Positions 19,537 to 46,862 of a DNA stretch of 64,000 bases are shown piece after piece (within the stretch, counting starts at the first letter, position 1; each line of letters starts with the position of its first letter). Under the pieces are notes generated by a model, which saw only the letters and a list, made by a program, of their open reading frames with translations, searched no databases and was not told the origin of the DNA. The translations under genes were made by a program, and so were the position numbers. Source of the stretch: an uncultured virus (IMG/VR IMGVR_UViG_3300023033_000001) (lineage: Duplodnaviria > Heunggongvirae > Uroviricota > Caudoviricetes); the IMG/VR virus record IMGVR_UViG_3300023033_000001; one strand, 5' to 3'.

Positions 19537-19693
19537 AAACAACACCTCCGTGCCCCAACAAACATATACTGTTTCGATAGATTCAGGGTCTGTGGTGCTG
19601 TTAAATCTGTGTAAGTCATCGTATGCTAAAATGACGATTTAAAGCAACGGTATTTCGTCGTTGCTCTTTTCTCAAATACTAGGAGAACAAACA

Positions 19694-22069
19694 ATGGCAT
19701 TAGAATCCACACGTACAATTAAAGAACTATCCGAAGAATGCGAAGCACGGAGACTTCACGTGAAACCAACAGGTAAGAATGGCAAATATTTAAAAGAGGA
19801 TTATATACGTGCGTTACGTGCTGATTATCTTGTTGAGCGTTACGGCGAACCGGACGGAGTTCCGTTTCCTTTACGGTTCATGCTGACGATGGACTGTCCG
19901 ATGCTGTGTAAACGATACGCTGCGATTAAGAAACCATCAGAGCAAATTGCCATATGGAAAAACGACGGAAAATACGCAGTTGAAGAGAAAATCGATGGTT
20001 GTTTTCATTATTCAACACCAGTTCTTCTCGCTGATGGAACCACAATGCCCATAGGAGAAATCGTTGAAAAGAAACTTTCAATAGAAGTGCTTTCGTTTGA
20101 TGAAACAACGCAAACACTGGTGCCTAGAAAAGTAGTCAGTTGGTTTGACAATGGGTATAAAAAGGCTTCCCAGTGGTTGAGGTTGAAAAATATAGGCAAG
20201 ACCAACGCACCATTCAGAAATGTTCGCCATCAAGGTGTTTTAATAACTCGTAATCATTCCATTTGGTCGGAAGGAGGATGGTTACCTGCCGAAGCTGCTA
20301 AAACTGTGAACATGATTACTCTTGGCATGAATAAAACACAAAAGCAAGTCATGTATGGATGTGTGCTTGGTGACGGCACGTGTTCGTATTCACGTAAAGA
20401 AGACAAGAACGCTTATTTTCAGTTTGTTCATTCTGTGAAGCAGAAAGACTACTTTGACAAAAAAGCTCTTTTGTTTTCTAGGTTTCCTCACAAAATTTCT
20501 GTAAACACATCTGGCTATGGTTCTGAGATTCATTCGTTTCGTGTAAATGCTTGTGCTGATGCCACAAGTCTTCGGACAAATGGATATTGTGATGGTCATC
20601 GTAAAGTCACACAAAGCTACTTATCCGAAGTTGGAACCCTTGGACTTGCTATATGGTTTATGGATGATGGTTCACGTATAAAAGAAAGAGATGAACTTGC
20701 ATGTCATTCAACAAATAAATTCTCTCGTGCAACCTTCTCAGCTTATCGGTACACTGAAAGTGACGTTCGAGAGCTTGTGTCGTGGTTAAATTCCTATGGC
20801 TATGAGGCGTCTGCTCACATGACAACACGAAAAAGTAAAAATCTTGGGTATGTAATCCAGTTGTCATCCAGTGGGAGTCAGTTATTTTTCAAAGACATCG
20901 CACCATATGTTCCTGTCTCAATGGAATACAAACTGCCTTTGGAGTTTCGTGGGGGACATAAAGAGTGTTGGTGGGATAACAACTCACCGGACTACAAAAC
21001 TGTCTCGACACCTGTTACATGGAGCTTTAATGACCGCAGTAATTGTGACCGTACAATAACATCAACGAAGGCATACGATATTGAAGTAGAAGGATGTCAC
21101 AGCTATGTGGCTAATGGTATGGTCGTTCACAATTCCAGAAGCATCTTGATTTATGATGCAGAACGTAAAGAGTTCGACTTTTACTCGCGCCACAATAGCG
21201 TTACAGACTTTTTGCCTATCTCGTACAAGAGCACTATCCGTACTTTCGGAACATTCACATCAGATACTAACTTCGTTCTCGACTGTGAAATCATCGCAAC
21301 CAATTCAAACACAAAAGCTCGTAAGACATGCACCACTCAGCTTAATTCAACATCTGCTTTGCTTGCGATGAACCCGGCAGAAAGTTTTGAAATTCAAAAG
21401 GATAGTCCGTTGATGTTCGTCATCTTTGACTGCCTTTACGATGGCGTTGATTTGCGTTCGCTTCCGTGGAAGGAACGTCATCCTCATGCCGAACGTCTTG
21501 CGAAAGAACTTTCCGACGCAGGGTTCCTATGCAAGATCAATCCATACGTGCTTGAAAACAAACGTGACTTCTATGAAAACATCATCCGACAGGGCGGGGA
21601 AGGCATTGTTGCAAAATTGGTTGATGCACCTTACACATCAACAACTTCACGAACTAACGATATGATTAAAGTCAAGAGAACCATTCAATGTGATCTGCTC
21701 CGTGATTTGGACGCGTGGGTGTCTGGTTACACAGAAGCAACAAAAGGAAAAGCCAATGAAAACTATATCGGAGGTCTTTGTTTCTCCGTAAAGATTCGTG
21801 ACAAGGAAGGAAACGTATCCGTTCGTGAAATCGGACGTGTTGCAGGTATTCCACAAGATCTCCGTATTGAGATGACTGATTACGACGATAATGGAAACCC
21901 AAAGCTGAAACATGAATACTATGGTCGTGTTGCAACGCTGTCAGGGCAGGACATTTCCGGCGTCAATATGCGAATCACACATTGCACGTTGAAAGAATGG
22001 CGTCCTGATAAAGGACCATCAGACTGTGAAACACTCGAAATGTCTGAATTGGAAAAACTCATTCTGTGA
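19694..22069 (+). CDS. ATP-dependent DNA ligase with a LAGLIDADG intein
   Basis: EKIDG|intein|SR motif I, LDCEI, FVIFDCL, GEGIVAK, IKVK and an OB-fold ending WRPDK; AGGAG SD before ATG 19694. Confidence 0.92.
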   Translation: MALESTRTIKELSEECEARRLHVKPTGKNGKYLKEDYIRALRADYLVERYGEPDGVPFPLRFMLTMDCPMLCKRYAAIKKPSEQIAIWKNDGKYAVEEKIDGCFHYSTPVLLADGTTMPIGEIVEKKLSIEVLSFDETTQTLVPRKVVSWFDNGYKKASQWLRLKNIGKTNAPFRNVRHQGVLITRNHSIWSEGGWLPAEAAKTVNMITLGMNKTQKQVMYGCVLGDGTCSYSRKEDKNAYFQFVHSVKQKDYFDKKALLFSRFPHKISVNTSGYGSEIHSFRVNACADATSLRTNGYCDGHRKVTQSYLSEVGTLGLAIWFMDDGSRIKERDELACHSTNKFSRATFSAYRYTESDVRELVSWLNSYGYEASAHMTTRKSKNLGYVIQLSSSGSQLFFKDIAPYVPVSMEYKLPLEFRGGHKECWWDNNSPDYKTVSTPVTWSFNDRSNCDRTITSTKAYDIEVEGCHSYVANGMVVHNSRSILIYDAERKEFDFYSRHNSVTDFLPISYKSTIRTFGTFTSDTNFVLDCEIIATNSNTKARKTCTTQLNSTSALLAMNPAESFEIQKDSPLMFVIFDCLYDGVDLRSLPWKERHPHAERLAKELSDAGFLCKINPYVLENKRDFYENIIRQGGEGIVAKLVDAPYTSTTSRTNDMIKVKRTIQCDLLRDLDAWVSGYTEATKGKANENYIGGLCFSVKIRDKEGNVSVREIGRVAGIPQDLRIEMTDYDDNGNPKLKHEYYGRVATLSGQDISGVNMRITHCTLKEWRPDKGPSDCETLEMSELEKLIL
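20000..21133 (+). mobile_element. Intein (378 aa) with a LAGLIDADG homing endonuclease, in ligase motif I
   Basis: CFHYSTPVLLADG...TRNH...GCVLGDG...AIWFMDDG...YDIEV...VVHN|S. Confidence 0.93.
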
Positions 22070-22227: not shown

Positions 22228-25200
22228 ATGTCTGACGAACTTTATACCAATAATGATGAATGGATGGACAACCCTGAGGACATTAACGATAACGACACCG
22301 AAGATAAAGAGGACGTTTCATATCTGTTCAACACACCTGACTTTCTTAAACCAAACACAGACACAGAATCTCAAAATGTAACCTTGTCAACAATCATAAA
22401 TTCAAGATTACAAGGTTATGGAGTTGTCAAGGATTTTGAAAACGAAGACCGTAAAGAAGTGGAAACGTCTCCTGATGAACAGCTTCGTGCTTCACTGAAA
22501 CAGAAGACTTTCTCCAAGTCTGAAATTCAGAGGTCTATTGATGACTTTCGCCGTGAGGTACAAACAAAGATAACGACGAAAGACCTTGTAGACACAATCG
22601 TTGAAGTTGCGTCTGGATACAAATCCAAAGGAGACAAACTTGACCTGCTAGGATGGGATATCCTTGATACGGAAAAGAGACATTATAAGTATGTGCCTTT
22701 ACAAGCAATTACTGATTTCTCACGCCGCGATACGACCATCCGTAAAGCCGTATTTCGTAACAGTTTTGTGAACTTCATTAAAACAGGCGAGAAAAAGTTC
22801 GTTCCTGTTCTCGGCGATGAACTTGTTTCGTTCATAATTGAAGAAGTGTTTCAGTCACCTGACTTGTTACCTGCTTCACAAGGGTACGACATGTTTAGAC
22901 GCATGGCACGTGGTGTACGTGGCGATGGTACTCCATTCTCAGTAAGTGAACTGGCAGACAGCATTAGATTCTCTTGCACACCGGATGCACTGCGTGTCAA
23001 ATTCAATACGCTTGTGTCTCAGAATAAAAACGGCGGTTCGACATTGGTTTCATACTACGCAAAACACAATATCAGTTTGGATAAAGAACAGCTGTCACGT
23101 GATTTTTCTGCACGGATTTCGACCTCCTGCAAGCGTGTTGTCGAAAGCGGTCAGTTCGGTTTTGTTCAAGAAGAAACCATCGACACTTTAAAAGCGATGG
23201 ACTCTATTATTCAAGAGATGATAAAGCGTAACCTTTTCCATGTACTTATAGGACCCGCAGGGTCTGGCAAGGCGATGCCGAAAGACATGAAAATCCCAAC
23301 CCCTGATGGTGAGAAAACTTTTGGAGAACTCAAAGTAGGAGACTTTGTATTTGACCGTAAGGGACACCCAACTAAAGTTTTAGGTGTGTATGATCGTGGC
23401 GTTCGTCCGTGTTTTGAGCTTACTTTTTCAGACGGTAGAAAAACACGTTGCTGTGACGAACATCTGTGGACTTGTTATACTTCAAAAAACAACTTCAAAA
23501 CTCTTACATTAAGGGAGATGATGGAACTTGGAATCCGTCACGAAGGTCGCAAAGAAGGTGCGAGATTCCGTATACCAACAAACGAATGCGTCGAATATGA
23601 GCAAAAGACTTTACCCGTTCACCCGTACATCGTCGGTGCATTCCTCGGTGACGGGTGCTGTAAAGAACTCAACCTTACCTTGTCTTCAGACGACATTCCA
23701 GTAGTGGAGAGGGTAGCAGCTCTCTTAAATGCTACATATAAAAAGACTAGCACACAGAATTATTCATGGATATTCATAAAGAACGGGCACCCACTTAAAA
23801 CTAAGGATGTGTTTAAAGAGGTTGCTCCATGTCTCATACAGGGTTCTAATGACAAGAGGGTTCCTTCAGATTACTTGTACGGTTCCCGTGAACAAAGAAT
23901 TGCTCTTCTTCAAGGACTGTTCGACACAGACGGGAGTGTGTCATACAGGTCAAACGGGATGGCAAACTTCTCAACAACAAGTAAAACTCTGTATGAAAAT
24001 GTGTCTTACCTGCTGAGAAGTCTTGGTGTGCAGGTTTCAAACAAGTCAAAACCTGTATGCCGTGGACGGGTAAAACATGACGGTACATGTTCAGTCGATT
24101 ATACGCTCATTACTTACTTAAAACCAGAACAGTTTGAAATGTGTTTCTCCTTGCCTAGACAGTTAGACAAGCTAAAAACAGTATATGGCACTTTCAAACA
24201 ACCTGCAAAACGTACCGACCGTGTTGCCTTAGTTGATGTGCGTGAGGTTGAACCTTGTGAACAACAATGCATTTTAGTCGATAATGAAGAACATCTATTT
24301 CTCGCCAACGATTTCATCGTTACACACAACACACATAAAGCAGTCAATGAATACTTCCCGACTCTGGAACAAAAACGAGGTAAAGGGACGTTGCTCGTAT
24401 CTCTATCCACATTGGTTGCAATCAATGGAGCTGATCGTGCAACAAAACGTAATAAACCAACCAATCCTTGTTCCATTACCATGTTCAACTTCTGTAATAA
24501 AAATCCTCTTCGTTGTGCATGGGTTACTGGGTATGACACTTACTGTATTGACGAGTTCTCACAGTGGGGACTTGAGCAGCTTGACACGTTCATGTCGATA
24601 TTAAAAAGAGCTTATCAAGAGCGTTCAAACCTTGTTATTCTTGGTGACCTTGTTCAGATAGGAACATTCCTTGGCAGAGGAAATCTGCTGTACATGCTGA
24701 CTGCTAATTACCCATACACGGAACTAAGCACAAACCACAGAATTAAGGACGCAAGAATCAGCGAGGTCATTGACGATATAAGAATCAGACAGACACGCTC
24801 TTTTGAACCATTTCGGATGGATCTTATTTCATTACAAGCCTTCCTGCACAAGAAACCCTCTAAAAGTGAAATGTGTATCACTGGAAGCAACGCGTATGCC
24901 GGACTTGTGAACGAACTAAAACTGGAAGCAGAACTTAGACAATCCATTAACGACAAACTTCCGAACTTCTATGTGCCATCAGGAACCTCCGACTGGAATG
25001 ATTATGACGTATGGAATCAAAACGAAGAATGGATTCGAACACGAATGAAAAAAACATCATTGAAGGTACGACCGAAAGAGAACTACAGATTTGAACAAGG
25101 AATCGGTAAAAGCCTTCGTGCGTCATACAGCACAAAGTTTTTACGAAATGAAACATGCATTGCAATGATGTCATCAGAGTTTACCGTATGCGTCACTTCA

Positions 25201-25569
25201 TGTGTATTCAAAACAAACGGAGTCTTCAAGACAGCAAACATTTCGTGGGGAGACTTCATTCAAAATTTCGTTCCATATTATGCAATCACTGTGAACAAAG
25301 CACAAGGGCTTGAATGGGATGACGTAGTTGTTCTGTACGGAAATCCTGAAAAATTGGACGAACGTCAAGGTGCATATGTTCCAAAGAAGAACTACAACCT
25401 AAACAGTTCTGATGCAGTACAAGCAACCTACGTTGCCATATCAAGACCACGTGAAACATTACGAATTTATTACGATGGAGTACGGACAACAAAACAAAAC
25501 ACACCCGTGTTCGCAAATCATCTGGACATCCTTAAAGAATTAGAACTTACTGTTACAAAAGGAGCTTAA
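22228..25569 (+). CDS. RecD/Dda-like SF1B helicase with an intein in Walker A
   Basis: GPAGSGK|intein|T, IDEFSQ, LGDLVQI, NHR, YAITVNKAQGLEW and YVAISRPR. Confidence 0.9.
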   Translation: MSDELYTNNDEWMDNPEDINDNDTEDKEDVSYLFNTPDFLKPNTDTESQNVTLSTIINSRLQGYGVVKDFENEDRKEVETSPDEQLRASLKQKTFSKSEIQRSIDDFRREVQTKITTKDLVDTIVEVASGYKSKGDKLDLLGWDILDTEKRHYKYVPLQAITDFSRRDTTIRKAVFRNSFVNFIKTGEKKFVPVLGDELVSFIIEEVFQSPDLLPASQGYDMFRRMARGVRGDGTPFSVSELADSIRFSCTPDALRVKFNTLVSQNKNGGSTLVSYYAKHNISLDKEQLSRDFSARISTSCKRVVESGQFGFVQEETIDTLKAMDSIIQEMIKRNLFHVLIGPAGSGKAMPKDMKIPTPDGEKTFGELKVGDFVFDRKGHPTKVLGVYDRGVRPCFELTFSDGRKTRCCDEHLWTCYTSKNNFKTLTLREMMELGIRHEGRKEGARFRIPTNECVEYEQKTLPVHPYIVGAFLGDGCCKELNLTLSSDDIPVVERVAALLNATYKKTSTQNYSWIFIKNGHPLKTKDVFKEVAPCLIQGSNDKRVPSDYLYGSREQRIALLQGLFDTDGSVSYRSNGMANFSTTSKTLYENVSYLLRSLGVQVSNKSKPVCRGRVKHDGTCSVDYTLITYLKPEQFEMCFSLPRQLDKLKTVYGTFKQPAKRTDRVALVDVREVEPCEQQCILVDNEEHLFLANDFIVTHNTHKAVNEYFPTLEQKRGKGTLLVSLSTLVAINGADRATKRNKPTNPCSITMFNFCNKNPLRCAWVTGYDTYCIDEFSQWGLEQLDTFMSILKRAYQERSNLVILGDLVQIGTFLGRGNLLYMLTANYPYTELSTNHRIKDARISEVIDDIRIRQTRSFEPFRMDLISLQAFLHKKPSKSEMCITGSNAYAGLVNELKLEAELRQSINDKLPNFYVPSGTSDWNDYDVWNQNEEWIRTRMKKTSLKVRPKENYRFEQGIGKSLRASYSTKFLRNETCIAMMSSEFTVCVTSCVFKTNGVFKTANISWGDFIQNFVPYYAITVNKAQGLEWDDVVVLYGNPEKLDERQGAYVPKKNYNLNSSDAVQATYVAISRPRETLRIYYDGVRTTKQNTPVFANHLDILKELELTVTKGA
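23272..24330 (+). mobile_element. Ala-start class-3-type intein (353 aa) with a LAGLIDADG domain
   Basis: AMPKDMKIPTPDG; block B HLW, block F QQCILVD, block G FIVTHN|T (the W-C-T triad); GAFLGDG and QGLFDTDG. Confidence 0.9.
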
Positions 25570-29213: not shown

Positions 29214-29480
29214 AGTCACTCCGATCCATCTTTATTCACCATTAATAACTAATGGCTACTATTAAATCACACCAAAACTGGTGTGGAGGGATCTCTCATC
29301 GCAAGAAATATCTGCTTAAACAGGATGTTTCTTGCTCCGTTTATATCTCTGTCATGCACACGCTAGAAAGTTGGTGGCAGGAAACTATATCCAGTACAGA
29401 AGATACCACGTATTACCATCGCCACCAACGTCAGAATGGTAAAGAATACAACGGCACAGAAGACGCCTAGAAGAATGTTT

Positions 29481-29633
29481 AAAAACGCATCCATGTCGTT
29501 CACATTCCTGTACCTCTTCACAGGTATCACAAGGTTTCGTACAATCATTCCCGTCATCCTTGACCAGACAAATCATATCACAAACATTTCCAATGAACCC
29601 TTCCATCTTCAAATCCATTCTCACGTTTGTTTG
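29481..29633. repeat. About 150-bp imperfect direct repeat, copy B (RE flank and guide source)
   Basis: Aligns with 31166-31315; 47/48 identical over 29586-29633. Confidence 0.9.
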
Positions 29634-31165
29634 GTGAACTACCCACCGCCTAAAGTCGGTGGGCTTCAAATTCATTAGAATTTGATTTATCCATTCTCAC
29701 GAATTGGATTTCCTGTTTCAACGAACAGTCCACTCTACTAGAATTAAACCTAGTTTTGCTTCCCTGCCCTCCACAGGCATAAGTTCCGATAGTTCCTACC
29801 GTACTTTTAATCTTGCTTATCGCGTCATTTCGCAAATTGATTGCCGCGTTGTGGTCACGATTATGTTCTACACCACATTCTGGGCAAATCCATTTACGAA
29901 CGCTCAAATTCTTCACAGCTTCGTTCTTAAAACCACAATGACTGCACAACTGTGATGATGCGAACCACTTATCCGATTTAACCACGAAACAGTTATGAAA
30001 TTTGCTTTTCCATTCAAGCATATTCACAAACTTATTCCATGACACATCATTATAGTTTTTGGAATTGTGGCTGAAACGCATCATGCCTTTGATGTTCAAC
30101 GTCTCAACACCAATCACTTCATAACTACGGACAAGACGTAAAGTTTCTTTCTCCATCCAATCACGTCTTTTGTTAGCTATGTGTTCCTCAAATTTTGCCA
30201 ATCGTCGTCTAGCCTTTTCACGGTTTTTGGAGTCTTTCTTGGTTCTCGAAAAGTTCCTTTGCAAATGAGCCAGATGACGTTTTGCTTCTTGCTTGAATGG
30301 AACATAATTGTGTGCTGAGTGATTGTTTGAGTCAATGTAAGCCTTTGATGGTGAAAAATCCAGTCCGATAGCTTGGTTATCGTTACCAGAAAAAGACTTC
30401 TCTCTATCGTTCAAACTTTCATAGACGCAACAAATCGAAGCATAACAGCGTCCAGATTTTGTCACTTCGACGGTCAAATTCTTTCTCTTGATGCCTTTAG
30501 TATGGAACCATGCAGGAATGTGGTTATGACGAAACGTTACTTTGCCAATCTTTGGAATTTTAAGCCACATCTCATGTTCTGAAATAAGATCCTCCGACAG
30601 CATTACCTCGCTGAAAGAACAACCATCCTTTTTCTTCTTGAAACGTGGTTTTCCTTTCTTGCCCTTAAAGAACTCAGAGTATGATTTTTGAGCATCACGC
30701 CTAGCCTGTTGCAGAGCAACGGATGAAACTTCCTTCAGAAAAGGAAACAACTCACAAAGATCTTTCTCTAATGTGTATTTGAACCCTTTATAAATCTTGT
30801 TCTTTTCGTCTTTGTTCAGGTTACGACCTTTGATGTTATCAGCGTAAAATTGTTCCCTTGCTTCGACGTATTTGTTGTAGACAAAACGACGGCATCCACC
30901 AGTTTTGATGAACATTTGAAGTTGTTCTGGTGTTGGGTACAATCTGATTTTAAGACTACGCTTAATTTCCATTGGTAACTGACCTGTGTTACTGACCGAT
31001 ATGTGTGGTGGCAAACACTCGGTCAAAGTGTCTTTCGGGGATCAGCCTAGCCACCAAACATATAAATAGCATAACATGATGCTTCTTTCAAGTGCTTGTT
31101 TCAATTAAATTGGCTAGCTTTCATCCCACGGTCTAAAGCCCTTTGGTTTTCAAGCTCACAGTATG
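29634..31165 (-). mobile_element. IS200/IS605-family (IS1341-like, tnpB-only) element
   Basis: LE after TTTAT (31170-31166) with a subterminal hairpin; RE hairpin ending GGGTAGTTCAC at 29634; no tnpA. Confidence 0.9.
29650..30972 (-). CDS. tnpB: RNA-guided endonuclease TnpB
   Basis: KIRLYPT HTH start; RuvC IGLD, VETL and RDHNAAINL (D-E-D intact); CSHCG/CPECG zinc finger. Confidence 0.95.
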   Translation of the reverse strand: MEIKRSLKIRLYPTPEQLQMFIKTGGCRRFVYNKYVEAREQFYADNIKGRNLNKDEKNKIYKGFKYTLEKDLCELFPFLKEVSSVALQQARRDAQKSYSEFFKGKKGKPRFKKKKDGCSFSEVMLSEDLISEHEMWLKIPKIGKVTFRHNHIPAWFHTKGIKRKNLTVEVTKSGRCYASICCVYESLNDREKSFSGNDNQAIGLDFSPSKAYIDSNNHSAHNYVPFKQEAKRHLAHLQRNFSRTKKDSKNREKARRRLAKFEEHIANKRRDWMEKETLRLVRSYEVIGVETLNIKGMMRFSHNSKNYNDVSWNKFVNMLEWKSKFHNCFVVKSDKWFASSQLCSHCGFKNEAVKNLSVRKWICPECGVEHNRDHNAAINLRNDAISKIKSTVGTIGTYACGGQGSKTRFNSSRVDCSLKQEIQFVRMDKSNSNEFEAHRL

Positions 31166-35763: not shown

Positions 35764-37323
35764 TTAATACAGAACGAATGCAGAAGCATTCGTGGACGTT
35801 CTGAAACTCGTGTATTTTGCAACAATGTCACTCTGAGACTTCATTTGCTGAAGACCATTCTCTTTACATACGTCGGCATCCGTACTAAAGATAACATCAC
35901 GCCATTTCTCAAAAACACGATAAGAAGTCATGTTGTCCGTACCCGCAGAGTTTCCAAAAATGCTTTTAATCTGGTTCACAAGAACTTTAGCATAAGACGC
36001 TTTGTCAGAAGTCTGCATTTGCTGTAATTGTGTACGAACCTGTGATGGGTCTTCCGTTTCAGGGCTATGTCCCATCTGTTGTTGTGCTTGTATCTGATTA
36101 GCAGGCTGCTGTGCATTAGCCACGACATCCTGACCATTTGCTGTTGCGGCATCAAGCAAAGCATTTCCTGTTGTGCCCTGTGTCGTCTGTGTGCCAGTTC
36201 CACCAGAAGTGCCCTTCATTGATTTACCAAGGGACTTGGCAAGATCGTCATCTAATTCTGCTGCACTGGCTAACGGTCTTAATGCACTCCATGCATCATC
36301 TTTACTTGACTGTGATTCATGATTCCACGGAATAATAACCATGTTAATGCATGGAATACCATCAGTAGTCTGGTTGGTTCCAACAGAGAATGTGCACCTT
36401 CCAAGCCATGGTAATTTATCTGTACGGACAGCAGACATGGATGCAATCAATTTTGCCTGGTAGTTAGAGCCGGACAACGCAGTCATTCCCTGCGTAAACT
36501 GTCCTTTTAGGAACAGAGGAGCGGCTTCTTCAAACATCTCAAGTAATGACTTCGAGTCTCTTTCAGTTTCTGACGTATTTGAGGTCGCATTCTGATTATC
36601 GCCATCCGCTTCATACGCACGCAAAATCTTAAAAGGAATCATGTTTCCGTTCTTATCCCTGCGAACAAACGATTCCTTTTTACCGGCTTCGCCTGTATTA
36701 CCTGTGTTTGAGGTTGTGTTGTCCGAACCTTTACTTGCTTGTGCCTGAGCTGCAAGAGCATCATCCTGCGTGCTCTGTGCCTGTTGAGTTTGTTTCGGTT
36801 CTTCATTAGGTTTGTTATCATCCACCTGATTAACAGATGCGACTTCCAATATCTGTAACAGGTAAATTGTCGCACCCTCAGCGTAACCTTTCGAGTCATA
36901 ACATGCAGTACCAACCACAATTACGCTGTCATCAAAAGCGTCTCTGTTAATCATGTCGTAGAACGTATTGCTGTCTCCGCCAACGAACTTCACAGGGTTC
37001 GTCTGCGTAGAAATAAGACGTGTTTTTCCATTGACTGTTTTTGCCTCAAACCCTCTTATTTCTTCACCGGCAGTGGAAGGGAACTCGACGTACACCTGAC
37101 CTTTTTGCTTTGCTACATCGCACAGACCTTCTCGGAACAACTTCTCTACTGTCTTGAGACGGCTTTCTTCGATACATGGTTTTGTTCTGCGATAGAATGA
37201 CTTGCTTTTCAGCGACAGTTTGTTGAGTTCTAATGTACTTTCTGAATCATTGTCTCCACGTGCTTCTGTGAAAGTTATGTTTGTGGTTGTCATATTGGAT
37301 TTATTTTTATTGAACAAAATCAT
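35764..37323 (-). CDS. Q/T/N-rich hypothetical protein, possibly virion-internal
   Basis: About 519 aa from MILFNKNK (GAGGA SD). Confidence 0.7.
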   Translation of the reverse strand: MILFNKNKSNMTTTNITFTEARGDNDSESTLELNKLSLKSKSFYRRTKPCIEESRLKTVEKLFREGLCDVAKQKGQVYVEFPSTAGEEIRGFEAKTVNGKTRLISTQTNPVKFVGGDSNTFYDMINRDAFDDSVIVVGTACYDSKGYAEGATIYLLQILEVASVNQVDDNKPNEEPKQTQQAQSTQDDALAAQAQASKGSDNTTSNTGNTGEAGKKESFVRRDKNGNMIPFKILRAYEADGDNQNATSNTSETERDSKSLLEMFEEAAPLFLKGQFTQGMTALSGSNYQAKLIASMSAVRTDKLPWLGRCTFSVGTNQTTDGIPCINMVIIPWNHESQSSKDDAWSALRPLASAAELDDDLAKSLGKSMKGTSGGTGTQTTQGTTGNALLDAATANGQDVVANAQQPANQIQAQQQMGHSPETEDPSQVRTQLQQMQTSDKASYAKVLVNQIKSIFGNSAGTDNMTSYRVFEKWRDVIFSTDADVCKENGLQQMKSQSDIVAKYTSFRTSTNASAFVLY

Positions 37324-37647
37324 CGCAGTCCTCAATAAGTACGTCAGATGAAGACATAAGACAAAAAGATTTCCTTTGAGATATGCAGTCTGCCCTTCCC
37401 AAAGGAAACAAATGGTTGCGTTAATTTGGCAACGCAACACCTACACATCTTTGATAACATCTATGGTTATCATGTCGCTATTTATTGCTGTAAGCCACCA
37501 ACATGAAAGTCAGTGTAATGCGTATTGTCATTTACGACAACGACAATACGGCTTCCCCTCGACAAAGCATCAACTGAGTTGAACGAACTGGGGAGGCATC
37601 ATAACGTTTCATTAAAGTTGATGCATAGTTCCTAAGAGATGAGTCTG

Positions 37648-37823
37648 TTCTCTTCAGTATGACATTTACTACGGGCGTTTTAGAGGTAGTACACCCATAT
37701 TAAATGCCATACCTCTGAGACGGACGAGACTGTGTGAATCAACGGATACGTGCGTTACACCTGTAATAAATGTCATACCTCTGAGACATCTAATGGAGGT
37801 TTAAAATGCCACACCTACGAGAT
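37648..37823 (-). repeat. 36-bp repeats with a 30-bp spacer plus an inverted copy (CRISPR-like or structured RNA)
   Basis: Repeats at 37686-37721 and 37752-37787, a partial third at 37803-37823, and an inverted copy at 37648-37683. Confidence 0.6.
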
Positions 37824-37865
37824 ACGTATCTAATGACCGGGAGGCATACAAGAGAAAACCAATAA

Positions 37866-39545
37866 TCAAGACAACGACCAGTTTCCGTTAAGAAAATCGT
37901 TATACGAACCTATAAGACCCTTTCCTCCTTTTTCTGTGTTTTCTGCTGCTTCTTTCGTTGCTTTAGTTGAGGATTTATTACCGTTTTTGCTACGACTTTT
38001 TATTGTCTTTCCAAGACCTTTCTGCCAGAGTAATGATTTCTTAATATAGTCCATTCGGCTTCGGTCAATCTCTACGTAATCGCATGTGATGGATGATCTG
38101 CACTCCGCCCCCATCAGACGGTCAATCAGTGCAAGGTGGTCTTTGAAGAGCATAATTTTGTACGAATCGATTGTACCTTCTACTTCAAGCAGATACACAT
38201 GTTGTTTCTTGTATGCTGAATCGACGCGACAAATTCTACCGACTGTCTGAATAACATTCTGAACACTGAACGAGGTGTTAAACATGATAATGTTATTCGC
38301 TTTCTGCAGGTTTCGTGAAGCAGTACCTGATGAAGTCATAATTACAACGTCACGCGGTTGCATGATTACTTCAATCTCAGAACGTTTGTTTTCAGGGATT
38401 TCTCCTGACAGGATATGGACTGTATGGACGCCAAACTCTGTTCGGTGTTTCTCAACAAATTCACGGACAAGTTCTACGGTCTCAAGGTACTCGACATAAA
38501 TCAAACATGCCTCATTTCGGTTCATCACAAGTTTTAACGTTTCTGACAAGAGCTTGAATTTGTTTGAGACAAAACCCTCAGGCAACGACAAGGTATTACC
38601 ACCATCGTCTGTAATCGGATTGCCATCAACAACACGCTGCAAATCGTGAAGTCTTGCTCCCCAGTCCTTTTCATCCTTGGTCACCAGGAGACCCTGTGCA
38701 GCACTAACATAAGCATCTGAAAGTTCATCATCTAATATGGTCTTCAGAAACGAGTACTCTACATCATAAGTTTTTGCACCCTTGATAGTTAGCATGTCGA
38801 TGTACTTGTTCAGCTCTTCCATATTTTGGTAGCCAATGATTTCCTTGATTATACGCTTGTGCTGATACGGATTAAATGCCTGACCCTTTTTACGCATGTA
38901 AATCTCACGGTCTTTTGTCACACAATATCTGTCACGAAATGCGAACCATGAAGTAAACACACGAGGGAACGTGAAGTGGTACAGGTTATAAAGTCCCTCA
39001 ATGCTGTTTACGAGTGGTGTACCGGTTAAGCAGTACACGCCAATACATTTCTGACGTACTGACCATAACGACTTTGACAACTCACTCTTTTCGTTCTGCA
39101 AGCAATGTGCTTCATCTATGAACAGGTATGTCGGGAATGTTTCTGTTATTCGTAACAAAGCTGGAACAATCTGTTTCAGATAGGTATGTTCCACAATGAT
39201 GATTTCGTGGTTCATCACCTGTTCCCATGTTGCATCTTTGTTCTTTACCGTAAGCAAAAGGTATGGCTTTCCTATCTTCGTAACACACTCACGTTCATAC
39301 GCAATGGACGCAGCTTTCGGAACTGCAAAAATACATCTAACGGGTGCTTTAAACCCTTCAACGCCTTTAGCACAAAGCTCCATCGCATAATGCAGCGACA
39401 GAAGCGTTTTGCCGCAGCCACACTGTAACGCAATGACTGAAGACTTCATCTTTCTCAGCTTATCAAGAGCCGTTTCTTGTTCTTGATTCAACGAATATCC
39501 CGTGTATACCCACGTATCTCTAAAGTCAGTTTTTTTCTTTGCCAT
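37866..39545 (-). CDS. SNF2-family (SF2) helicase
   Basis: CGCGKT, FIDEAH, LTGTP.N, NLQKAN and QTVGRICR. Confidence 0.9.
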   Translation of the reverse strand: MAKKKTDFRDTWVYTGYSLNQEQETALDKLRKMKSSVIALQCGCGKTLLSLHYAMELCAKGVEGFKAPVRCIFAVPKAASIAYERECVTKIGKPYLLLTVKNKDATWEQVMNHEIIIVEHTYLKQIVPALLRITETFPTYLFIDEAHCLQNEKSELSKSLWSVRQKCIGVYCLTGTPLVNSIEGLYNLYHFTFPRVFTSWFAFRDRYCVTKDREIYMRKKGQAFNPYQHKRIIKEIIGYQNMEELNKYIDMLTIKGAKTYDVEYSFLKTILDDELSDAYVSAAQGLLVTKDEKDWGARLHDLQRVVDGNPITDDGGNTLSLPEGFVSNKFKLLSETLKLVMNRNEACLIYVEYLETVELVREFVEKHRTEFGVHTVHILSGEIPENKRSEIEVIMQPRDVVIMTSSGTASRNLQKANNIIMFNTSFSVQNVIQTVGRICRVDSAYKKQHVYLLEVEGTIDSYKIMLFKDHLALIDRLMGAECRSSITCDYVEIDRSRMDYIKKSLLWQKGLGKTIKSRSKNGNKSSTKATKEAAENTEKGGKGLIGSYNDFLNGNWSLS

Positions 39546-42289: not shown

Positions 42290-42321
42290 TCTCCAACTAT
42301 CGTAGTTTGGTTATTATCCTG

Positions 42322-42888
42322 CTAGTCCCACATGTCTAAATAATTTTCAGCGAGAAGCGAGAACCCTTCTTTTCGGATTCGATTATGCTCTTTCCATAAT
42401 GATTCATCTGTGTCCTCTGTCTGGCCAGTCATATCAGAAAGAGATACTTCAAAAGCCATCTTTATCTTATTCAATACCTCATGCCATGTTTCAGGAGTCA
42501 TTCCTGCTTTGTAACTCGCACCTTTTCTAATCCATACGTCCAAAGCAGGAATCGCAAATTCTGCCAAAGCACACCCGAACTCCCAACATGCGTATGGCGT
42601 AGGATATCCTTCCAACATGCAGAAGACAAAATCCATCGGATACCACAAGTCTCCGTCCTGTGCGGTTATTTCATGACACGTATCGTGAAGTGTCCATTTC
42701 GGAAACCAGGCATCCTCTTCAAGGTCGTCATCAGACGGAAACGTGTACGAACAAATGACCGTTTGACCGTCACTTAAACGAACCATGAATTTGCCGAAAT
42801 AAGGATTCCTATCGTCATTGAGTTCTGTTTTTACCTTGTACGGTCTTTCCTCTGAAAACTTTTTCCACTTGAATTGCTCAAGAGACAT
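42322..42888 (-). CDS. Hypothetical protein
   Basis: W.EVL.KI..AFE...EGF.LLAE....MWD C-terminus. Confidence 0.7.
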   Translation of the reverse strand: MSLEQFKWKKFSEERPYKVKTELNDDRNPYFGKFMVRLSDGQTVICSYTFPSDDDLEEDAWFPKWTLHDTCHEITAQDGDLWYPMDFVFCMLEGYPTPYACWEFGCALAEFAIPALDVWIRKGASYKAGMTPETWHEVLNKIKMAFEVSLSDMTGQTEDTDESLWKEHNRIRKEGFSLLAENYLDMWD

Positions 42889-43203
42889 ATTACACTATCC
42901 AATAAGTTATGTTGTCGTACATCATGCAAGGAACTTGGATGTCATATTCTTTCATATCCGCACCAATCCAATCCCATGTTTCTCTCTCCCCTTGTGTATT
43001 GCGTGTGGGCAACAGACGTTGCCCACGAGTCCTTATCGTTTCAGCAGAATGGCATTCCCATATTGGGCTATGTTCTTTTCAGCAAAGTAGTTATCCTTGC
43101 CCCATGCATCTGTCATATGAAGTTTAATCGGTTCGGCTTTATACCCATTCACCATCAAAGCGGCGATAAGGCATGTTTTCGCCTCAACCGTAATAACCAC
43201 TTC

Positions 43204-43241
43204 GTGAACTACCCACCCGCTTTAGCGGGTGGGTAGTTCAC
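43204..43241. mobile_element. Perfect 38-bp RE-RE palindrome
   Basis: GTGAACTACCCACCCGC-TTTA-GCGGGTGGGTAGTTCAC. Confidence 0.85.
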
Positions 43242-43245
43242 ACAC

Positions 43246-44250
43246 TTAAAATGTGTGTATTTCAAGGGGAGTTATCATCTCACGCAATTCTTCACCTTGA
43301 GTGATAGCATTAATGTATTTGTCCCCAAATTGCCTTAGCAGTTTTAAGCACAAATCCAAACATTTTATTACATCATTTGGAAATTCGTTTATGTCATCTT
43401 CATAAAAAGCATTACCAATAGATTCAATGTAATTTTTGGATGTTTTCACAAGGTCAACAGAACTATTTGTAGTCTGCTCCAAGACACGTGTTAAAACTTT
43501 AGTGACACTCTTTTGAGTGTGTGAGTTCAAATCGATTTCATCAGGGAAAACGTTTGCATATTTTTGAAAGTCTGAATAGCTCATGGAGACACCAAGAATG
43601 TCTAAAACTGAGGTGTTCACTCTATCGAACAAGTCTTGATTCTTAAATCCATATATCACCTTTCGGTGCTTCGTTGTGTCTTCAAGACCTATCTGCCTAA
43701 AATAATGAACACCGTCTTCGTCAAGTTCAAGTTGATCATGTTTATTTAAAATTTCTTCTGCATAAATATTTGGGATTGGATATCCGTTATATTTTTTCAT
43801 CAAATATTCAACTTTGCCACTGACTTCTGCCCAATACCATCCTTCATAGTTTTTGATATCGTATCGGATCAGGGCTCTAGCGAACTCACCAGAACCCTTT
43901 ATGTCCATATTTTTAGCGAGTGCAATGTTTTTATAACTACCATCTACAATTCGGAACACTTCTAATGCCATTATATCATTCTGGTGATTAGAAAGCTCAG
44001 ACTCTTCGTAAGTGGTTGATGTGATTACCCTAAGTAATTTAGCACTTTTTAGAAACTTTTTTGGGTTGCTTGTTCCCAAATAACCACCAATTGACGCATA
44101 AGCCTTTTCAATAATATCACGCATTTTAACGAAAAATGTTTCAACATCTGGCGGTGTAATATCATAGATTGCACAAATTTCCCATTGCACATGACTTATG
44201 GATTCCCCATAAGTCGAAGTGTGATGTCTGTTTTTTCTAATCAGTGCCAT
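43246..44250 (-). CDS. Hypothetical protein with a basic leader; AT-rich
   Basis: 334 aa; MALIRKNR...YGES; has its own promoter box at 44364-44372. Confidence 0.75.
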   Translation of the reverse strand: MALIRKNRHHTSTYGESISHVQWEICAIYDITPPDVETFFVKMRDIIEKAYASIGGYLGTSNPKKFLKSAKLLRVITSTTYEESELSNHQNDIMALEVFRIVDGSYKNIALAKNMDIKGSGEFARALIRYDIKNYEGWYWAEVSGKVEYLMKKYNGYPIPNIYAEEILNKHDQLELDEDGVHYFRQIGLEDTTKHRKVIYGFKNQDLFDRVNTSVLDILGVSMSYSDFQKYANVFPDEIDLNSHTQKSVTKVLTRVLEQTTNSSVDLVKTSKNYIESIGNAFYEDDINEFPNDVIKCLDLCLKLLRQFGDKYINAITQGEELREMITPLEIHTF

Positions 44251-44390
44251 ATCGCTACCTCACTTCATTTAAGATAAAAGTCTCGATAGCAACCTTTCCA
44301 ACCATTTCAATGTTGCTATCATCACACGATCTTATAGCACACTATTTCTTACAGTATCTCTAACAGCACCACGAAACAAAAAGTCTCCTA

Positions 44391-44412
44391 CTTTAGGCGG
44401 TGGGTAGTTCAC
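44391..44412 (+). mobile_element. Half-hairpin RE remnant between divergent promoter boxes
   Basis: CTTTAGGCGGTGGGTAGTTCAC. Confidence 0.75.
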
Positions 44413-44550
44413 GTAATAATGATAGCTGCACTTTCTTTTGGTGTGGTGCTGGAAAAAGGACGTTCGACTTCTGTGATATAGTAGTGTGAGTATGTAGCAA
44501 CTGTGGGTGGTACGGTTGCTGTCGAATGGAAGTAATCCTAATATCTGGAT

Positions 44551-44931
44551 GTGTTGATTATGCGAAAACGTGATCGTTCAAACGCTTTTGAAATGACAAC
44601 TTTGAGAAAAGCACGTTCTGGCTTGCCGGTAAACATATACCTGGACGACAGTGGATCTTATCTTAATTGTGATTATGAACCTAGAATCCAATTTCAACCA
44701 AATAAAGGAAACTGTCCGGACATTCGTTCTCTGATACCTATGACAATTTCAGACGAACCTACTATTCCGATAAAGAATTATCAGTCACGGTTAAATGGTG
44801 TTGGAAGTAATGACATCTCTTTGATTATGTCATTCGTCATTGCAAACAAAACAAATCTTCTCAGATTATGTGACCGTAATGATGAATACGATATCTCCAA
44901 TTTTTTGGATGACATGGTTAAAGTCTCGTGA
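44551..44931 (+). CDS. Hypothetical protein (EM..L....GLPVNI type)
   Basis: 126 aa; the TGA stop lies within GTGAATTACCC. Confidence 0.7.
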   Translation: MLIMRKRDRSNAFEMTTLRKARSGLPVNIYLDDSGSYLNCDYEPRIQFQPNKGNCPDIRSLIPMTISDEPTIPIKNYQSRLNGVGSNDISLIMSFVIANKTNLLRLCDRNDEYDISNFLDDMVKVS

Positions 44932-44962
44932 ATTACCCACCGTCTTTAGCGGGTGGGATTCA
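44928..44962 (-). mobile_element. RE hairpin copy
   Basis: GTGAATTACCCACCGTCTTTAGCGGGTGGGATTCA. Confidence 0.75.
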
Positions 44963-44988
44963 AAACAGAGTATCTGGTGAGGTGTTGC

Positions 44989-45972
44989 ATGTTTCGTTCA
45001 TTTGAATCAGTTAAAATTGATGATCCTGTACTTGAACTTGAATGGGAAGACCTGTCATTGATTGGCGGAGCTACTGGTCTTGCCCTAAGTCTTAAAAACA
45101 GTCTTTCGAAGTTCCTAAGAAATTATGGAGAACACGACATTCTTGAAGACTTATATCATGCAGTGGCGCTTGGTCTTAGTAATCTCCAAGAAATCGGTAT
45201 GTTTGACGGTTTTTTGTCAAATCCTAATATTGAGTTTCGTGGAAAGACTAATATTTCCATACAGAATAAACTTGATAGACATCACATACATTCAGCAGGT
45301 CGTCCTCTTGAAAAGGTCTTTAACGACTTGATTGGTATTAGAATTATCGTAGAAGATTATTCAGTATGGGAATCTGTAAAACATAAGTTTGATTCATCGG
45401 TGTGTACTGTCGTTGACATGAGATGCGGAAAGTTCCCTGATGATGGTTACAGAGCTGTTCACGTTTACTTCCAAGCTGATCACTTGCATTATCCTGTTGA
45501 ACTTCAATTCGTGTCTGAGCATGACAGTCAGTTCAACGCATGGCAACACGACCATGCATATAAGTCATCATGGTTTGCTCCTTCTGTAGGAAAGAAATTG
45601 CGTGAGTTATACGATGACTGGAAAATTCAGACAGAGGATGAGTATGTGTCAGAGCTCACTAAACTGTCATCAATGGTTACGTACTCAGAAAAAAGGACGT
45701 GGGAAGGTACGAAACTTGTTGCGTGCAGATTCGGTATAAAGGGGTGTATAGGGTACATGCCTGAAACGATTCACGAGTTAATGTACCTTTATCGTGAACT
45801 TTGTCCCTATTGTAGAAGACAGATTCCAACAGTCGATGTAACTGTCGTTAAGGGAGAGAGTTATGCTGAGTTTAGTCCATGTACGATCTACGCTACCTAT
45901 ACTGATTTTTATGCGGCGATATTCCATGATTTGTTAAGAAAACCTGAACGGCACTCACGGTGTACACCATGA
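44989..45972 (+). CDS. RelA/SpoT nucleotidyltransferase-domain protein (small alarmone synthetase-like)
   Basis: NDLIGIRII, DDGYRAVHVY and PVELQ; GAGGTG SD before ATG 44989. Confidence 0.8.
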   Translation: MFRSFESVKIDDPVLELEWEDLSLIGGATGLALSLKNSLSKFLRNYGEHDILEDLYHAVALGLSNLQEIGMFDGFLSNPNIEFRGKTNISIQNKLDRHHIHSAGRPLEKVFNDLIGIRIIVEDYSVWESVKHKFDSSVCTVVDMRCGKFPDDGYRAVHVYFQADHLHYPVELQFVSEHDSQFNAWQHDHAYKSSWFAPSVGKKLRELYDDWKIQTEDEYVSELTKLSSMVTYSEKRTWEGTKLVACRFGIKGCIGYMPETIHELMYLYRELCPYCRRQIPTVDVTVVKGESYAEFSPCTIYATYTDFYAAIFHDLLRKPERHSRCTP

Positions 45973-46000
45973 ACTACCCACCCGCTAAAGGCGGTTGGTA
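45970..46000 (-). mobile_element. RE hairpin copy
   Basis: TGAACTACCCACCCGCTAAAGGCGGTTGGTA; its TGA is the stop of the RelA/SpoT gene. Confidence 0.75.
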
Positions 46001-46040
46001 TGAATTAGGATATTAAGGTGACATGGAGACATTAAAGACA

Positions 46041-46072
46041 TCGTTACCACCGCCTAAAGGCGGTGGTAACGA
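46041..46072. repeat. Palindrome of the same hairpin family
   Basis: TCGTTACCACCGCC-TAAA-GGCGGTGGTAACGA. Confidence 0.75.
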
Positions 46073-46421
46073 GTGCCTTCGAGACACAATGATTAACATC
46101 ATTCATCCACCAATTTATCGTTATTCACTCTTCTTCAATCTTCTTCAATCTTATTCTACTTGATGATGTGCCACGAGTCTGCAATTCTGTACTCAGTTCT
46201 TTGTACTGTTCCGAAATGAGTATTTACTTTGTGGATTCTCTTCGGTTCGCTAGCTTTAGTAGAGCAAAGAGGATCAAACATACCGTAACGGCTATCATGG
46301 ATTCTATAATAGATTCTATCGTCCACATGTCTCTCCTACATTAGGCAATTAACAAATTTTAAATCTAAACACAATTTGAAACGACCCGTGATAGAATCCA
46401 CTACTCAAGCACGAATAAGAG

Positions 46422-46862
46422 TTACATGTTCTGTTTTTGTTCGGTTGCAATGGAAACTCCACCCAACGTGTTAGCCCAATTCTCAGGGAAATGACAGTAA
46501 TACCAGAGGATACTGTAATTCCCTTTCCGTCTTCTCCAATAGAGAATAACTGATGGAATAGCTACCACAAATAAGTAAAGAGGACCCAAAAACAAAGACT
46601 GAACACTGTGACCTGACTCATGCCTTAATATGTCTTCCTTAGAATCCTTGTGCGTGAAAATAAAAGGTCCCAATGACCAACACGTGTGCCAAGGATGTTT
46701 AACCCTCCACACGGTCATACCTGTATGTTCATTTTTCCAAGGTTCGATATCATGGAGTACTATTAAAACGAGCAAGGCAGCAATCACTTGTGGTAACTGC
46801 CATAAAAACAAAAGCCATACAACAGGGGAACTCAAGTTCGCATAATTGAAATCTGCTTTCAT
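46422..46862 (-). CDS. Membrane protein with an HExxH motif
   Basis: WQLPQ, SLGPFIF and RHESGHSVQS..LGPLYL. Confidence 0.75.
   Translation of the reverse strand: MKADFNYANLSSPVVWLLFLWQLPQVIAALLVLIVLHDIEPWKNEHTGMTVWRVKHPWHTCWSLGPFIFTHKDSKEDILRHESGHSVQSLFLGPLYLFVVAIPSVILYWRRRKGNYSILWYYCHFPENWANTLGGVSIATEQKQNM

Follow-up and report, generated by a model that had tools for sequence, protein, structure and literature searches.

A probable guide-RNA gene for a CRISPR-associated IscB nuclease, with no IscB gene beside it, in a large phage

Which protein, if any, would use an RNA made from a repeat-spacer cassette that lies without cas genes in the genome of a phage? The question is raised by a stretch of 64,000 nucleotides from an uncultured virus of the Caudoviricetes (IMG/VR record IMGVR_UViG_3300023033_000001), which was analysed as a whole and is termed the window in the following. 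Near position 37.7 kb, it contains two direct repeats separated by a spacer and followed by an inverted copy of the repeat. An initial annotation, made from the letters of the window, had read this locus as a type II CRISPR-like mini-array fused to an anti-repeat, as a possible mimic or decoy for a host Cas9 (Racr-like), and had named iterons of a replication origin as an alternative. The results described here lead to another partner. With a probability of roughly 0.85, we regard the cassette as a self-contained guide-RNA gene for a CRISPR-associated IscB nuclease, carried by a phage of roughly 243 kb. For comparison, a sibling phage of about 85% identity is available, whose contig G001 (98,607 bp) shares synteny with the window at nucleotide identities of 77-91%.

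The cassette is located on the minus strand within a gap of 425 nt separating two minus-strand genes, which encode an SNF2/DEAD-type helicase (37866..39545) and a low-complexity protein of 558 amino acids (open reading frame (ORF) listed as 35764..37440). Its parts are listed in Table 1. The order of repeat, 30-nt spacer and repeat with a period of 66 reads as initially described, the two repeats R1 and R2 being identical at 29 of 36 positions. A 19-nt repeat core is present in three copies (at most three mismatches) in the 64-kb window, all of them at the cassette locus, the third being the decayed copy at 37822-37804; none of 100 shuffled sequences had three matches (mean 0.02). The 16 nt between this decayed copy and R1 (37803-37788) abut R1 and are identical in the syntenic cassette of the sibling. 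Across the window copy and seven copies of the sibling, conservation extends from the repeat to a common GGCTTACAGCAA-type end at 37485, beyond which the sequences diverge, and in several copies, including that of the window (37438-37415), a hairpin and a T-run come after the conserved unit. The extent assigned initially (37648..37823) comprises the array and the anti-repeat and is correct to that degree, but too narrow, as the conserved unit continues to 37485 and the whole unit, including the terminator hairpin, reaches from 37823 to 37415. No terminator separates the helicase gene from the cassette, so that read-through transcription is possible. At the other end of the gap, the GTG start codon listed by the ORF finder for the 558-aa gene (37440) falls inside the terminator hairpin of the cassette, and this gene therefore more likely starts at an ATG near 37323 or 37293.

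Table 1 Features of the window cassette, the IscB gene of the sibling phage, and matches of guides between the two phages (positions refer to the window unless a contig is named)
Feature	Position	Strand	Remarks
R0, decayed 5' repeat part	37804..37823	minus	15/20 repeat-core positions match; third core copy
R1, upstream 36-nt repeat	37752..37787	minus	direct read of the sequence
Spacer, 30 nt	37722..37751	minus	differs from spacer of the sibling's syntenic cassette
R2, terminal 36-nt repeat, 5' strand of the repeat:anti-repeat hairpin	37686..37721	minus	
Hairpin loop, 12 nt	37690-37679	minus	
Fused anti-repeat (3' strand of upper stem, internal loop, lower stem)	37647..37678	minus	
IscB-type omega-RNA scaffold, ~165 nt, six helices including a long-range one	37485..37646	minus	covarying helices, model match
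3' tail, terminator-like hairpin 37438-37415 and T-rich run	37405..37484	minus	also in sibling cassettes A and F
Sibling IscB, 607 aa	G001 81174-82997 (L028 1174-2997)	minus	PLMP, RRXRR, HNH, OgeuIscB match
Match of window spacer	G003 77430-77401		25/30, 3' 16/16, then A-run
Match of first spacer of the sibling's IscB-adjacent array	44267-44238	minus	25/30, 3' 16/16, then A-run
Match of flank-derived guide of sibling cassette B	42896-42867	minus	27/30, 3' 15/16, GG then A-run
Match of one spacer of sibling cassette D	G003 78131-78160		25/30, 3' 16 nt inexact

Pairing of the inverted copy with the second repeat, in the layout of a natural single-guide RNA with the guide at the 5' end, had been proposed from the window alone and is borne out by the fold. 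The duplex of R2 and anti-repeat is composed of an upper stem of 23 bp and a lower stem of 5 bp. Between the stems are a 1-nt bulge and an internal loop, the latter at repeat positions 6-8, and in the window copy 22 of the 23 positions of the upper stem are standard pairs, including the four G-U wobbles already noted. R1 could form a duplex of about the same quality with the anti-repeat (inverted repeat I1, 22 nt, 86%). A structure was drawn up from the single-sequence fold and the helices given by RNAalifold and then scored on eight copies. The resulting consensus fold contains 71 pairs, with 96.2% of the cells paired and 15 pairs changed on both sides; 14 compensatory pairs sit in four of the six helices of the scaffold, and one pair of the repeat:anti-repeat duplex (columns 21/55) alternates between A-U and G-C. 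Helices 1 and 2, which represent this duplex, are paired to 100% and 94.2% over seven copies. In none of 500 column shuffles were the pairing, the numbers of compensatory changes or the covariation score as high as observed, a figure that is no probability because the copies are related. The slid controls, in which the 3' partners were moved by 1-3 columns, keep this relatedness, and in these the pairing falls to 30-45%. All related copies stem from one sibling genome, and the covariation is divergence of paralogues within a single lineage. RNAalifold's own consensus favoured a hairpin within the terminal repeat over the duplex. We retain the duplex, since it is obtained in the single-sequence minimum free energy structure, contains a compensatory pair and is 94% paired, and it is the more likely form of the terminal repeat.

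The strand of the RNA follows from the wobble pairs. Over the whole fold and the eight copies, 61 cells are G-U and nine are A-C, which places the RNA on the minus strand of the window, in agreement with the initial call. The same count bears on the proposal that the repeats are DNA sites, i.e. iterons or operator sites for a DNA-binding protein in an origin or an intergenic regulatory region. Three direct copies and one inverted copy of the 19-nt core within a 425-nt gap would suit such sites; the excess of G-U over A-C cells and the 15 compensatory pairs, however, are properties of an RNA, the sibling has seven dispersed scaffold copies with variable 30-nt inserts, and the cumulative GC skew has no turn at 37.7 kb. 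This leaves the iteron explanation with a negligible probability.

The partner of the RNA is indicated by the sibling phage. Contigs G001 and G003 represent one genome of 237,074 bp, as exact proteins of both are found on a contig of that size and their lengths add up to nearly this value (98,607 + 138,361 = 236,968). This genome contains seven scaffold copies and a single IscB gene, from which six of the copies are located apart. In G001, the repeat is present at six places with 1, 2, 4, 4, about 6, and 7-8 repeats, the spacers being mostly 30 nt long and all different, and each of the six places terminates in a repeat, a loop, an anti-repeat, and the conserved stretch of about 165 nt. The seventh copy, on G003, is truncated and lacks a repeat. 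Small arrays are thus borne by five of the seven copies, and cassette B consists of a single repeat preceded by a flank-derived guide. The ATG of an ORF of 607 aa follows cassette E on the same strand at a distance of about 25 nt. The encoded protein starts with a PLMP motif, contains the Pfam domains RRXRR (E 4e-36) and HNH (E 1e-15), and aligns, RuvC and HNH motifs included, with the chains of the solved OgeuIscB structures (PDB 7UTN, 7XHT; E 2e-42). In a collection of 5.8 billion proteins, its nearest relatives are thousands of IscBs of about 420 aa, with identities of 41-49% in local BLASTP alignments and, for eight of them aligned with MAFFT, of 51-54%; compared to these, it has extra segments at about residues 119-183, behind the arginine-rich helix, and at about residues 432-515. 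The gene is part of a 6-kb island (G001 79.5-85.4 kb) comprising IscB, cassette E, two ORFs of about 280-290 aa, and one ORF of 399 aa. Neither Cas1 nor a Y1 transposase (TnpA) was found in G001, G003 or G002, the latter being a contig of a more distant relative. Two peculiarities of the island were noted in addition: cassette E has one short spacer of 17 nt (G001 83252-83304 = L028 3252-3304), with a period of 53 instead of 66, and a repeat-like 20-mer is located at the extreme 3' end of the IscB gene (G001 ~81188).

A covariance model of the scaffold alone (161 positions, 43 pairs) connects the cassette to IscB genes at large. In the window, it has a single match (37650-37485, 159 bits). In 79 other viral IscB loci, scanned with 1.5-kb flanks, 20 matches at E <=1 were obtained in 18 loci, seven loci having matches at E <=0.01, and all 20 have the orientation of the gene, with their ends no more than about 170 nt ahead of the IscB start. 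With nhmmer, three loci gave weak matches at this upstream place. The position of the model matches just upstream of IscB genes indicates that the scaffold is a diverged member of the RNA which normally precedes IscB. An array directly upstream of the gene is present only in G001 among the 80 viral IscB loci. Two of these loci, L138 (257-392, 3577-3643) and L143 (3883-4026), whose IscBs are about 28% identical to that of the sibling, contain direct repeats of 36 nt close to the gene, arranged at a period of 66-68, and are possibly further array-bearing IscB systems.

These results also bear on a host Cas9 as partner. Type II arrays typically have repeats of 36 nt and spacers of 30 nt, and a mini-array or single-guide mimic that loads into or decoys a host Cas9 would share these dimensions and the bulged duplex with the cassette. 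In the sibling, however, the same cassette is located directly upstream of IscB and not of Cas9, the nuclease being encoded by the phage, and the scaffold model finds its matches upstream of other IscB genes. Instead of the type II set of cas9, cas1 and cas2 with a separate tracrRNA, the locus has an anti-repeat fused to the array. When 185,579 bacterial and archaeal species representatives were scanned with the exact pattern of the 20-nt repeat core, which misses diverged repeats, two single chance matches and no array were obtained, and a metagenome scan gave no carrier beyond the phage contigs described here. A Cas9 partner is consequently very improbable, and the decoy function suggested with it is not supported; the spacer has a plausible real target, as described below. 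Another candidate is the product of the tnpB gene at 29650..31026, as no RNA-guided-nuclease family other than TnpB was found in the window. The guides of TnpB are located at the 3' end of an RNA that overlaps the 3' end of tnpB, unlike the guide of the cassette, which is 5' of the scaffold; the cassette is 6.6 kb away from this gene, and in 19 loci the position of the scaffold links it to IscB. We consider a function as TnpB guide RNA to be hardly conceivable.

What are the guides directed against? As guides, 23 stretches of 30 nt located 5' of a repeat (true spacers and leader flanks) were compared without gaps to both strands of the window, G001, G002, and G003 (528,586 bp). None of 230 shuffled spacers reached 23/30, and 8 of 460 shuffled 16-mers reached 15/16. 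The search for spacer matches, which had been suggested at the outset, was successful in that the window spacer has a match in the sibling genome (Table 1), at the stop codon and 3' end of a 191-aa gene convergent with a 385-aa gene. In the opposite direction, the first spacer of the IscB-adjacent array matches the window at a site covering the ribosome-binding site and start codon of ORF 43246..44250, and the guide of cassette B matches an "empty site" at the start of ORF 42322..42888, which in the sibling is replaced by cassette B. The spacer matches between the two phages are reciprocal. Most mismatches of the cassette D spacer recur every three bases, a spacing like that in a diverged allele of the gene concerned. 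In both exact cases, the exact match is confined to the last 16 nt. The repeat-proximal 16 nt of the window spacer are therefore likely to be the guide, which fits the 16-nt guide reported, in the accessible part of the source, to be sufficient for the CRISPR-associated IscB termed DelIscB (PMC12660989). Three protospacers are followed within 7 nt by a run of at least four A, for which the background chance (four-A run within the first 7 flank bases) is 0.021 per site, and on the basis of this common feature an A-rich motif 1-2 nt after the target is proposed.

At ≤3 mismatches, the window spacer has no match in G001, G002, or G003, the 25/30 match having been obtained in the ungapped scan; in viral contigs, a spacer-derived pattern was found only in the sibling's own array, and neither the locus nor the spacer had a match in the GenBank phage collection. 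The 30-nt site at 77.4 kb of G003 to which the window spacer corresponds is matched on its opposite strand by the second spacer of cassette E (22/30). The window spacer and this spacer resemble reverse complements because both derive from one A-run-flanked site on opposite strands. Targeting of array E itself by the window spacer, which the reverse-complement likeness (25-26/30) might suggest, was rejected, as 4 of 16 seed positions are mismatched and the flank is a repeat and not an A-run. A 15/16 seed match of a sibling spacer at G003 81547-81532 was treated as chance, having neither an extension nor an A-run. The 77.4-kb site of G003 (77395-77437; L050 17395-17437), 30 nt long and bordered by an A-run at either end, is located in the intergenic space where two genes converge. 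Spacers of both strands have it as their source or target, the 385-aa gene beside it is matched by a third spacer, and the site may be a hot spot of targeting. In the window, a 4-kb block (~42295-46437), which includes a RelA/SpoT-domain ORF (44953..45972), has no counterpart in G001, the sibling contig covering this region, and the two sibling guides mentioned above match the left part of this block (42867-42896, 44238-44267).

Variation of the spacer among relatives, a further point raised initially, was found as well. Window and sibling have different spacers in their syntenic cassettes, which means that spacers turn over and that the spacer was exchanged after the two phages had split; it is unchanged in a relative 98.5% identical to the window, represented by one contig of metagenome run X1. 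The cassettes as such are also polymorphic. In G002, whose helicase is 67% identical, only 95 nt separate the two genes and no scaffold is present anywhere, and the window cassette is therefore an insertion. The sibling cassettes D and F are absent at the matching joints of the window (26350/26408 and 6983/7034). The metagenome runs with contigs of the locus (coded X1-X4) are labelled bovine gut metagenome or plain metagenome; most of these contigs break inside the cassette and one spans it.

Against the assignment of the cassette to an IscB system, or against its present activity, stand the following results. In an Rfam cmscan of 36500-39000 with E values up to 10, only three unrelated chance rows were obtained, and the covariance model of HEARO (RF02033), which we take to be the IscB-linked RNA family of Rfam, had no match in this region. 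The promoter scan revealed no sigma-70-type promoter. The putative target-adjacent motif, A-rich and 1-2 nt after the target, is derived from three sites only. In the ORFs of the window of at least 90 aa, neither IscB nor an HNH or Cas9-type domain nor cas genes were found, the last of these in accordance with the initial annotation. The gene next to the cassette is the low-complexity ORF of 558 aa; the position directly upstream of iscB in the same orientation is taken only by cassette E of the sibling, so that the window copy is an orphan member. The IscB island of the sibling has no counterpart in the window, where the flanking blocks are present but rearranged. The window is identical (100% over 8,046 bases compared) to a metagenome contig of 243,002 bp, and its helicase and the neighbour of this gene are recorded on a 243,109-bp contig in the protein collection. 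The five members of the 90% cluster of the sibling IscB, however, are from contigs of at most 237,074, 16,136, 11,974, 11,080, and 9,995 bp, none of them being on a 243-kb contig, and among the best 120 of 4,388 relatives there is none between 97% and about 50% identity. With no traceable cluster member and no relative of intermediate identity, the window phage probably has no ortholog of the sibling's IscB.

Signs of decay in the window copy itself have to be added to this list. Six of its 71 pairs are broken, the largest number of all copies; in the sibling copies, the numbers are 0, 1, 1, 3, 3, and 5 (the last in cassette A with its shortened anti-repeat), and 1 in the truncated copy of G003. 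Three private substitutions break pairs that are kept in all six others. Compared to the 98.5%-identical X1 relative (one contig, depth 5.8), there are six differences in the cassette, all in paired columns, and a pair is gained or lost through four of the six (two per lineage). Between window and sibling, identity amounts to 82.6% over the syntenic cassettes and to 85.5% over the surrounding 4.7-kb block. This pattern looks like relaxed constraint, in small numbers and with duplex and guide intact.

The cassette could accordingly be a pure leftover, inherited from an IscB-bearing ancestor, with the nuclease lost, the RNA inactive and the sequence in neutral decay. This explanation concerns the present activity and not the identity of the locus. 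The broken pairs, the slightly faster divergence of the cassette and the lack of a traceable IscB ortholog argue for it, whereas the duplex is still paired at 22 of 23 positions, 65 of 71 pairs stand, the spacer was exchanged after the split of the phages, and it retains an exact 16-nt match with an A-run in the sibling genome; moreover, the counts are small and the one contig compared is of low depth. We give the leftover somewhat less than an even chance. As to a source of nuclease, an IscB encoded elsewhere in the genome of the window phage is unlikely, an IscB provided by a co-infecting sibling phage is unlikely to the same degree, and a host IscB is improbable. Given the exact 16-nt match and the A-run in the sibling genome, the cassette might also be a guide-only counter-weapon of a phage without IscB, whose RNA would load into the nuclease of the co-infecting sibling and turn it on the sibling's own genome. 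We think this rather unlikely; if true, it would be a takeover, at the RNA level, of a rival's RNA-guided nuclease between two phages that each carry other selfish homing elements.

For a functional guide-RNA gene of an IscB system, the following course of events can be envisaged. The cassette would be transcribed from the minus strand, perhaps jointly with the helicase gene that precedes it, and the terminal repeat would pair in cis with the fused anti-repeat to give a natural single guide. As the spacer adjoins the hairpin, it occupies the guide position of a single-guide RNA. The RNA would be processed and loaded into IscB, and the repeat-proximal ~16 nt would direct cutting at a match with an A-rich flank. 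A rival phage would be cleaved, resulting in its exclusion or in homing through recombination. Since the one match found for the window spacer is in the sibling phage, an attack on related phages during co-infection, or homing into them, is the likely role. The homing idea is based on cassette B and on the selfish role of these nucleases as presented in the accessible part of a preprint (bioRxiv 10.1101/2023.03.14.532601).

The window is phage DNA with genes for a tail sheath, a tail-tube-like protein, an amidase, a ligase, and helicases, most ORFs being without a Pfam family. The TnpB at 29650-31026 on the minus strand looks intact (HTH_OrfB_IS605, OrfB_IS605, and Cas12f1-like TNB domains; PHROG transposase, E 3e-91), and the block holding it (~29361-31163) has no counterpart at the syntenic place in G001, i.e. 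the window phage carries an RNA-guided-nuclease element different from that of the sibling. Two LAGLIDADG-type insertions, resembling inteins or homing endonucleases, are located at 19998-21155 inside the gene of an ATP-dependent ligase (19661..22069) and at 23274-24327 inside a gene for a helicase/terminase-like protein of 1113 aa (22228..25569). The sibling lacks both and has uninterrupted sequence at these places. The segment 12096-19536 is inverted relative to the sibling (G001 85440-91943), where the IscB island is located at one edge.

IscB is regarded as a forerunner of Cas9 and array-bearing IscB loci as an evolutionary intermediate, according to the part of the source available (PMC12660989). 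The phage pair described here presents this intermediate apparently in use, with one nuclease gene and several dispersed guide cassettes, extending from a classical single repeat, whose guide is flank-derived, to arrays of seven or eight repeats, without Cas1 and Cas2. Spacers matching the alleles of the other phage point to an RNA-guided conflict between related phages, and the orphan copy of the window adds a natural state of loss or hijack. Several questions thereby become testable: the growth of arrays without an adaptation module, the use of upstream spacers when the anti-repeat is fused in cis, and the action of RNA-guided nucleases as homing or exclusion weapons between phages. In addition, the system offers a compact nuclease with a candidate A-rich target motif.

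How does the cassette compare to known systems? Viral solitary mini-arrays and Racr mimic or use the CRISPR repeats of the host and carry no scaffold. They too are short arrays on a mobile element without adjoining cas genes, possibly aimed at related viruses; in contrast, the repeat of the window has no host counterpart, and the cassette brings its own anti-repeat and scaffold. With the crRNA:tracrRNA of Cas9 and the single-guide RNA, the cassette shares the order of guide, repeat, loop, anti-repeat, and scaffold as well as the 36-nt repeats, the 30-nt spacers and the bulged duplex, but differs in its natural fusion, its far longer scaffold and its partner, IscB; cas9, cas1 and cas2 were not found. 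Closer is the canonical OMEGA IscB omega RNA (IS200/IS605-type, OgeuIscB), to which the system is linked by the OgeuIscB match of the sibling protein with its PLMP, RuvC, and HNH motifs and by the scaffold model, which finds 18 of 79 upstream regions; cassette B resembles the classical arrangement. Here, the difference is that the 5' stem strand and the guide are duplicated into an array, that no TnpA was found in the sibling, and that a match to Rfam is lacking.

CRISPR-associated IscB was reportedly first described by Altae-Tran and coworkers in 2021. As far as the accessible part of the report on DelIscB goes, its non-coding RNA is encoded upstream of iscB and combines, on one strand, array-like spacers and repeats with an anti-repeat and a scaffold of the omega type, the guide is on the 5' side, and the layout needs no Cas1 or Cas2 (PMC12660989). 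The window cassette has the same order, with repeats and spacers, anti-repeat and scaffold on one strand and a 5' guide. Differences are that the system described here is carried by phages, that a single IscB in the sibling goes with seven scaffold copies, of which six are located apart from it, that the window copy is alone with no IscB in 64 kb, and that spacers match sibling phages. Moreover, the IscB of the sibling has 607 aa compared to 457 aa for DelIscB. The likeness of the two RNAs is one of layout. In the accessible literature on IscB in phages, jumbo and huge phages included, no phage-borne multi-cassette IscB was found; the supplements of Altae-Tran et al. 2021 might bear on this point. 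Judged from these partly accessible sources, the kind of system is already known from DelIscB, and what is new is its setting, which is phage-borne, multi-cassette, orphan in one phage, and mutually targeting.

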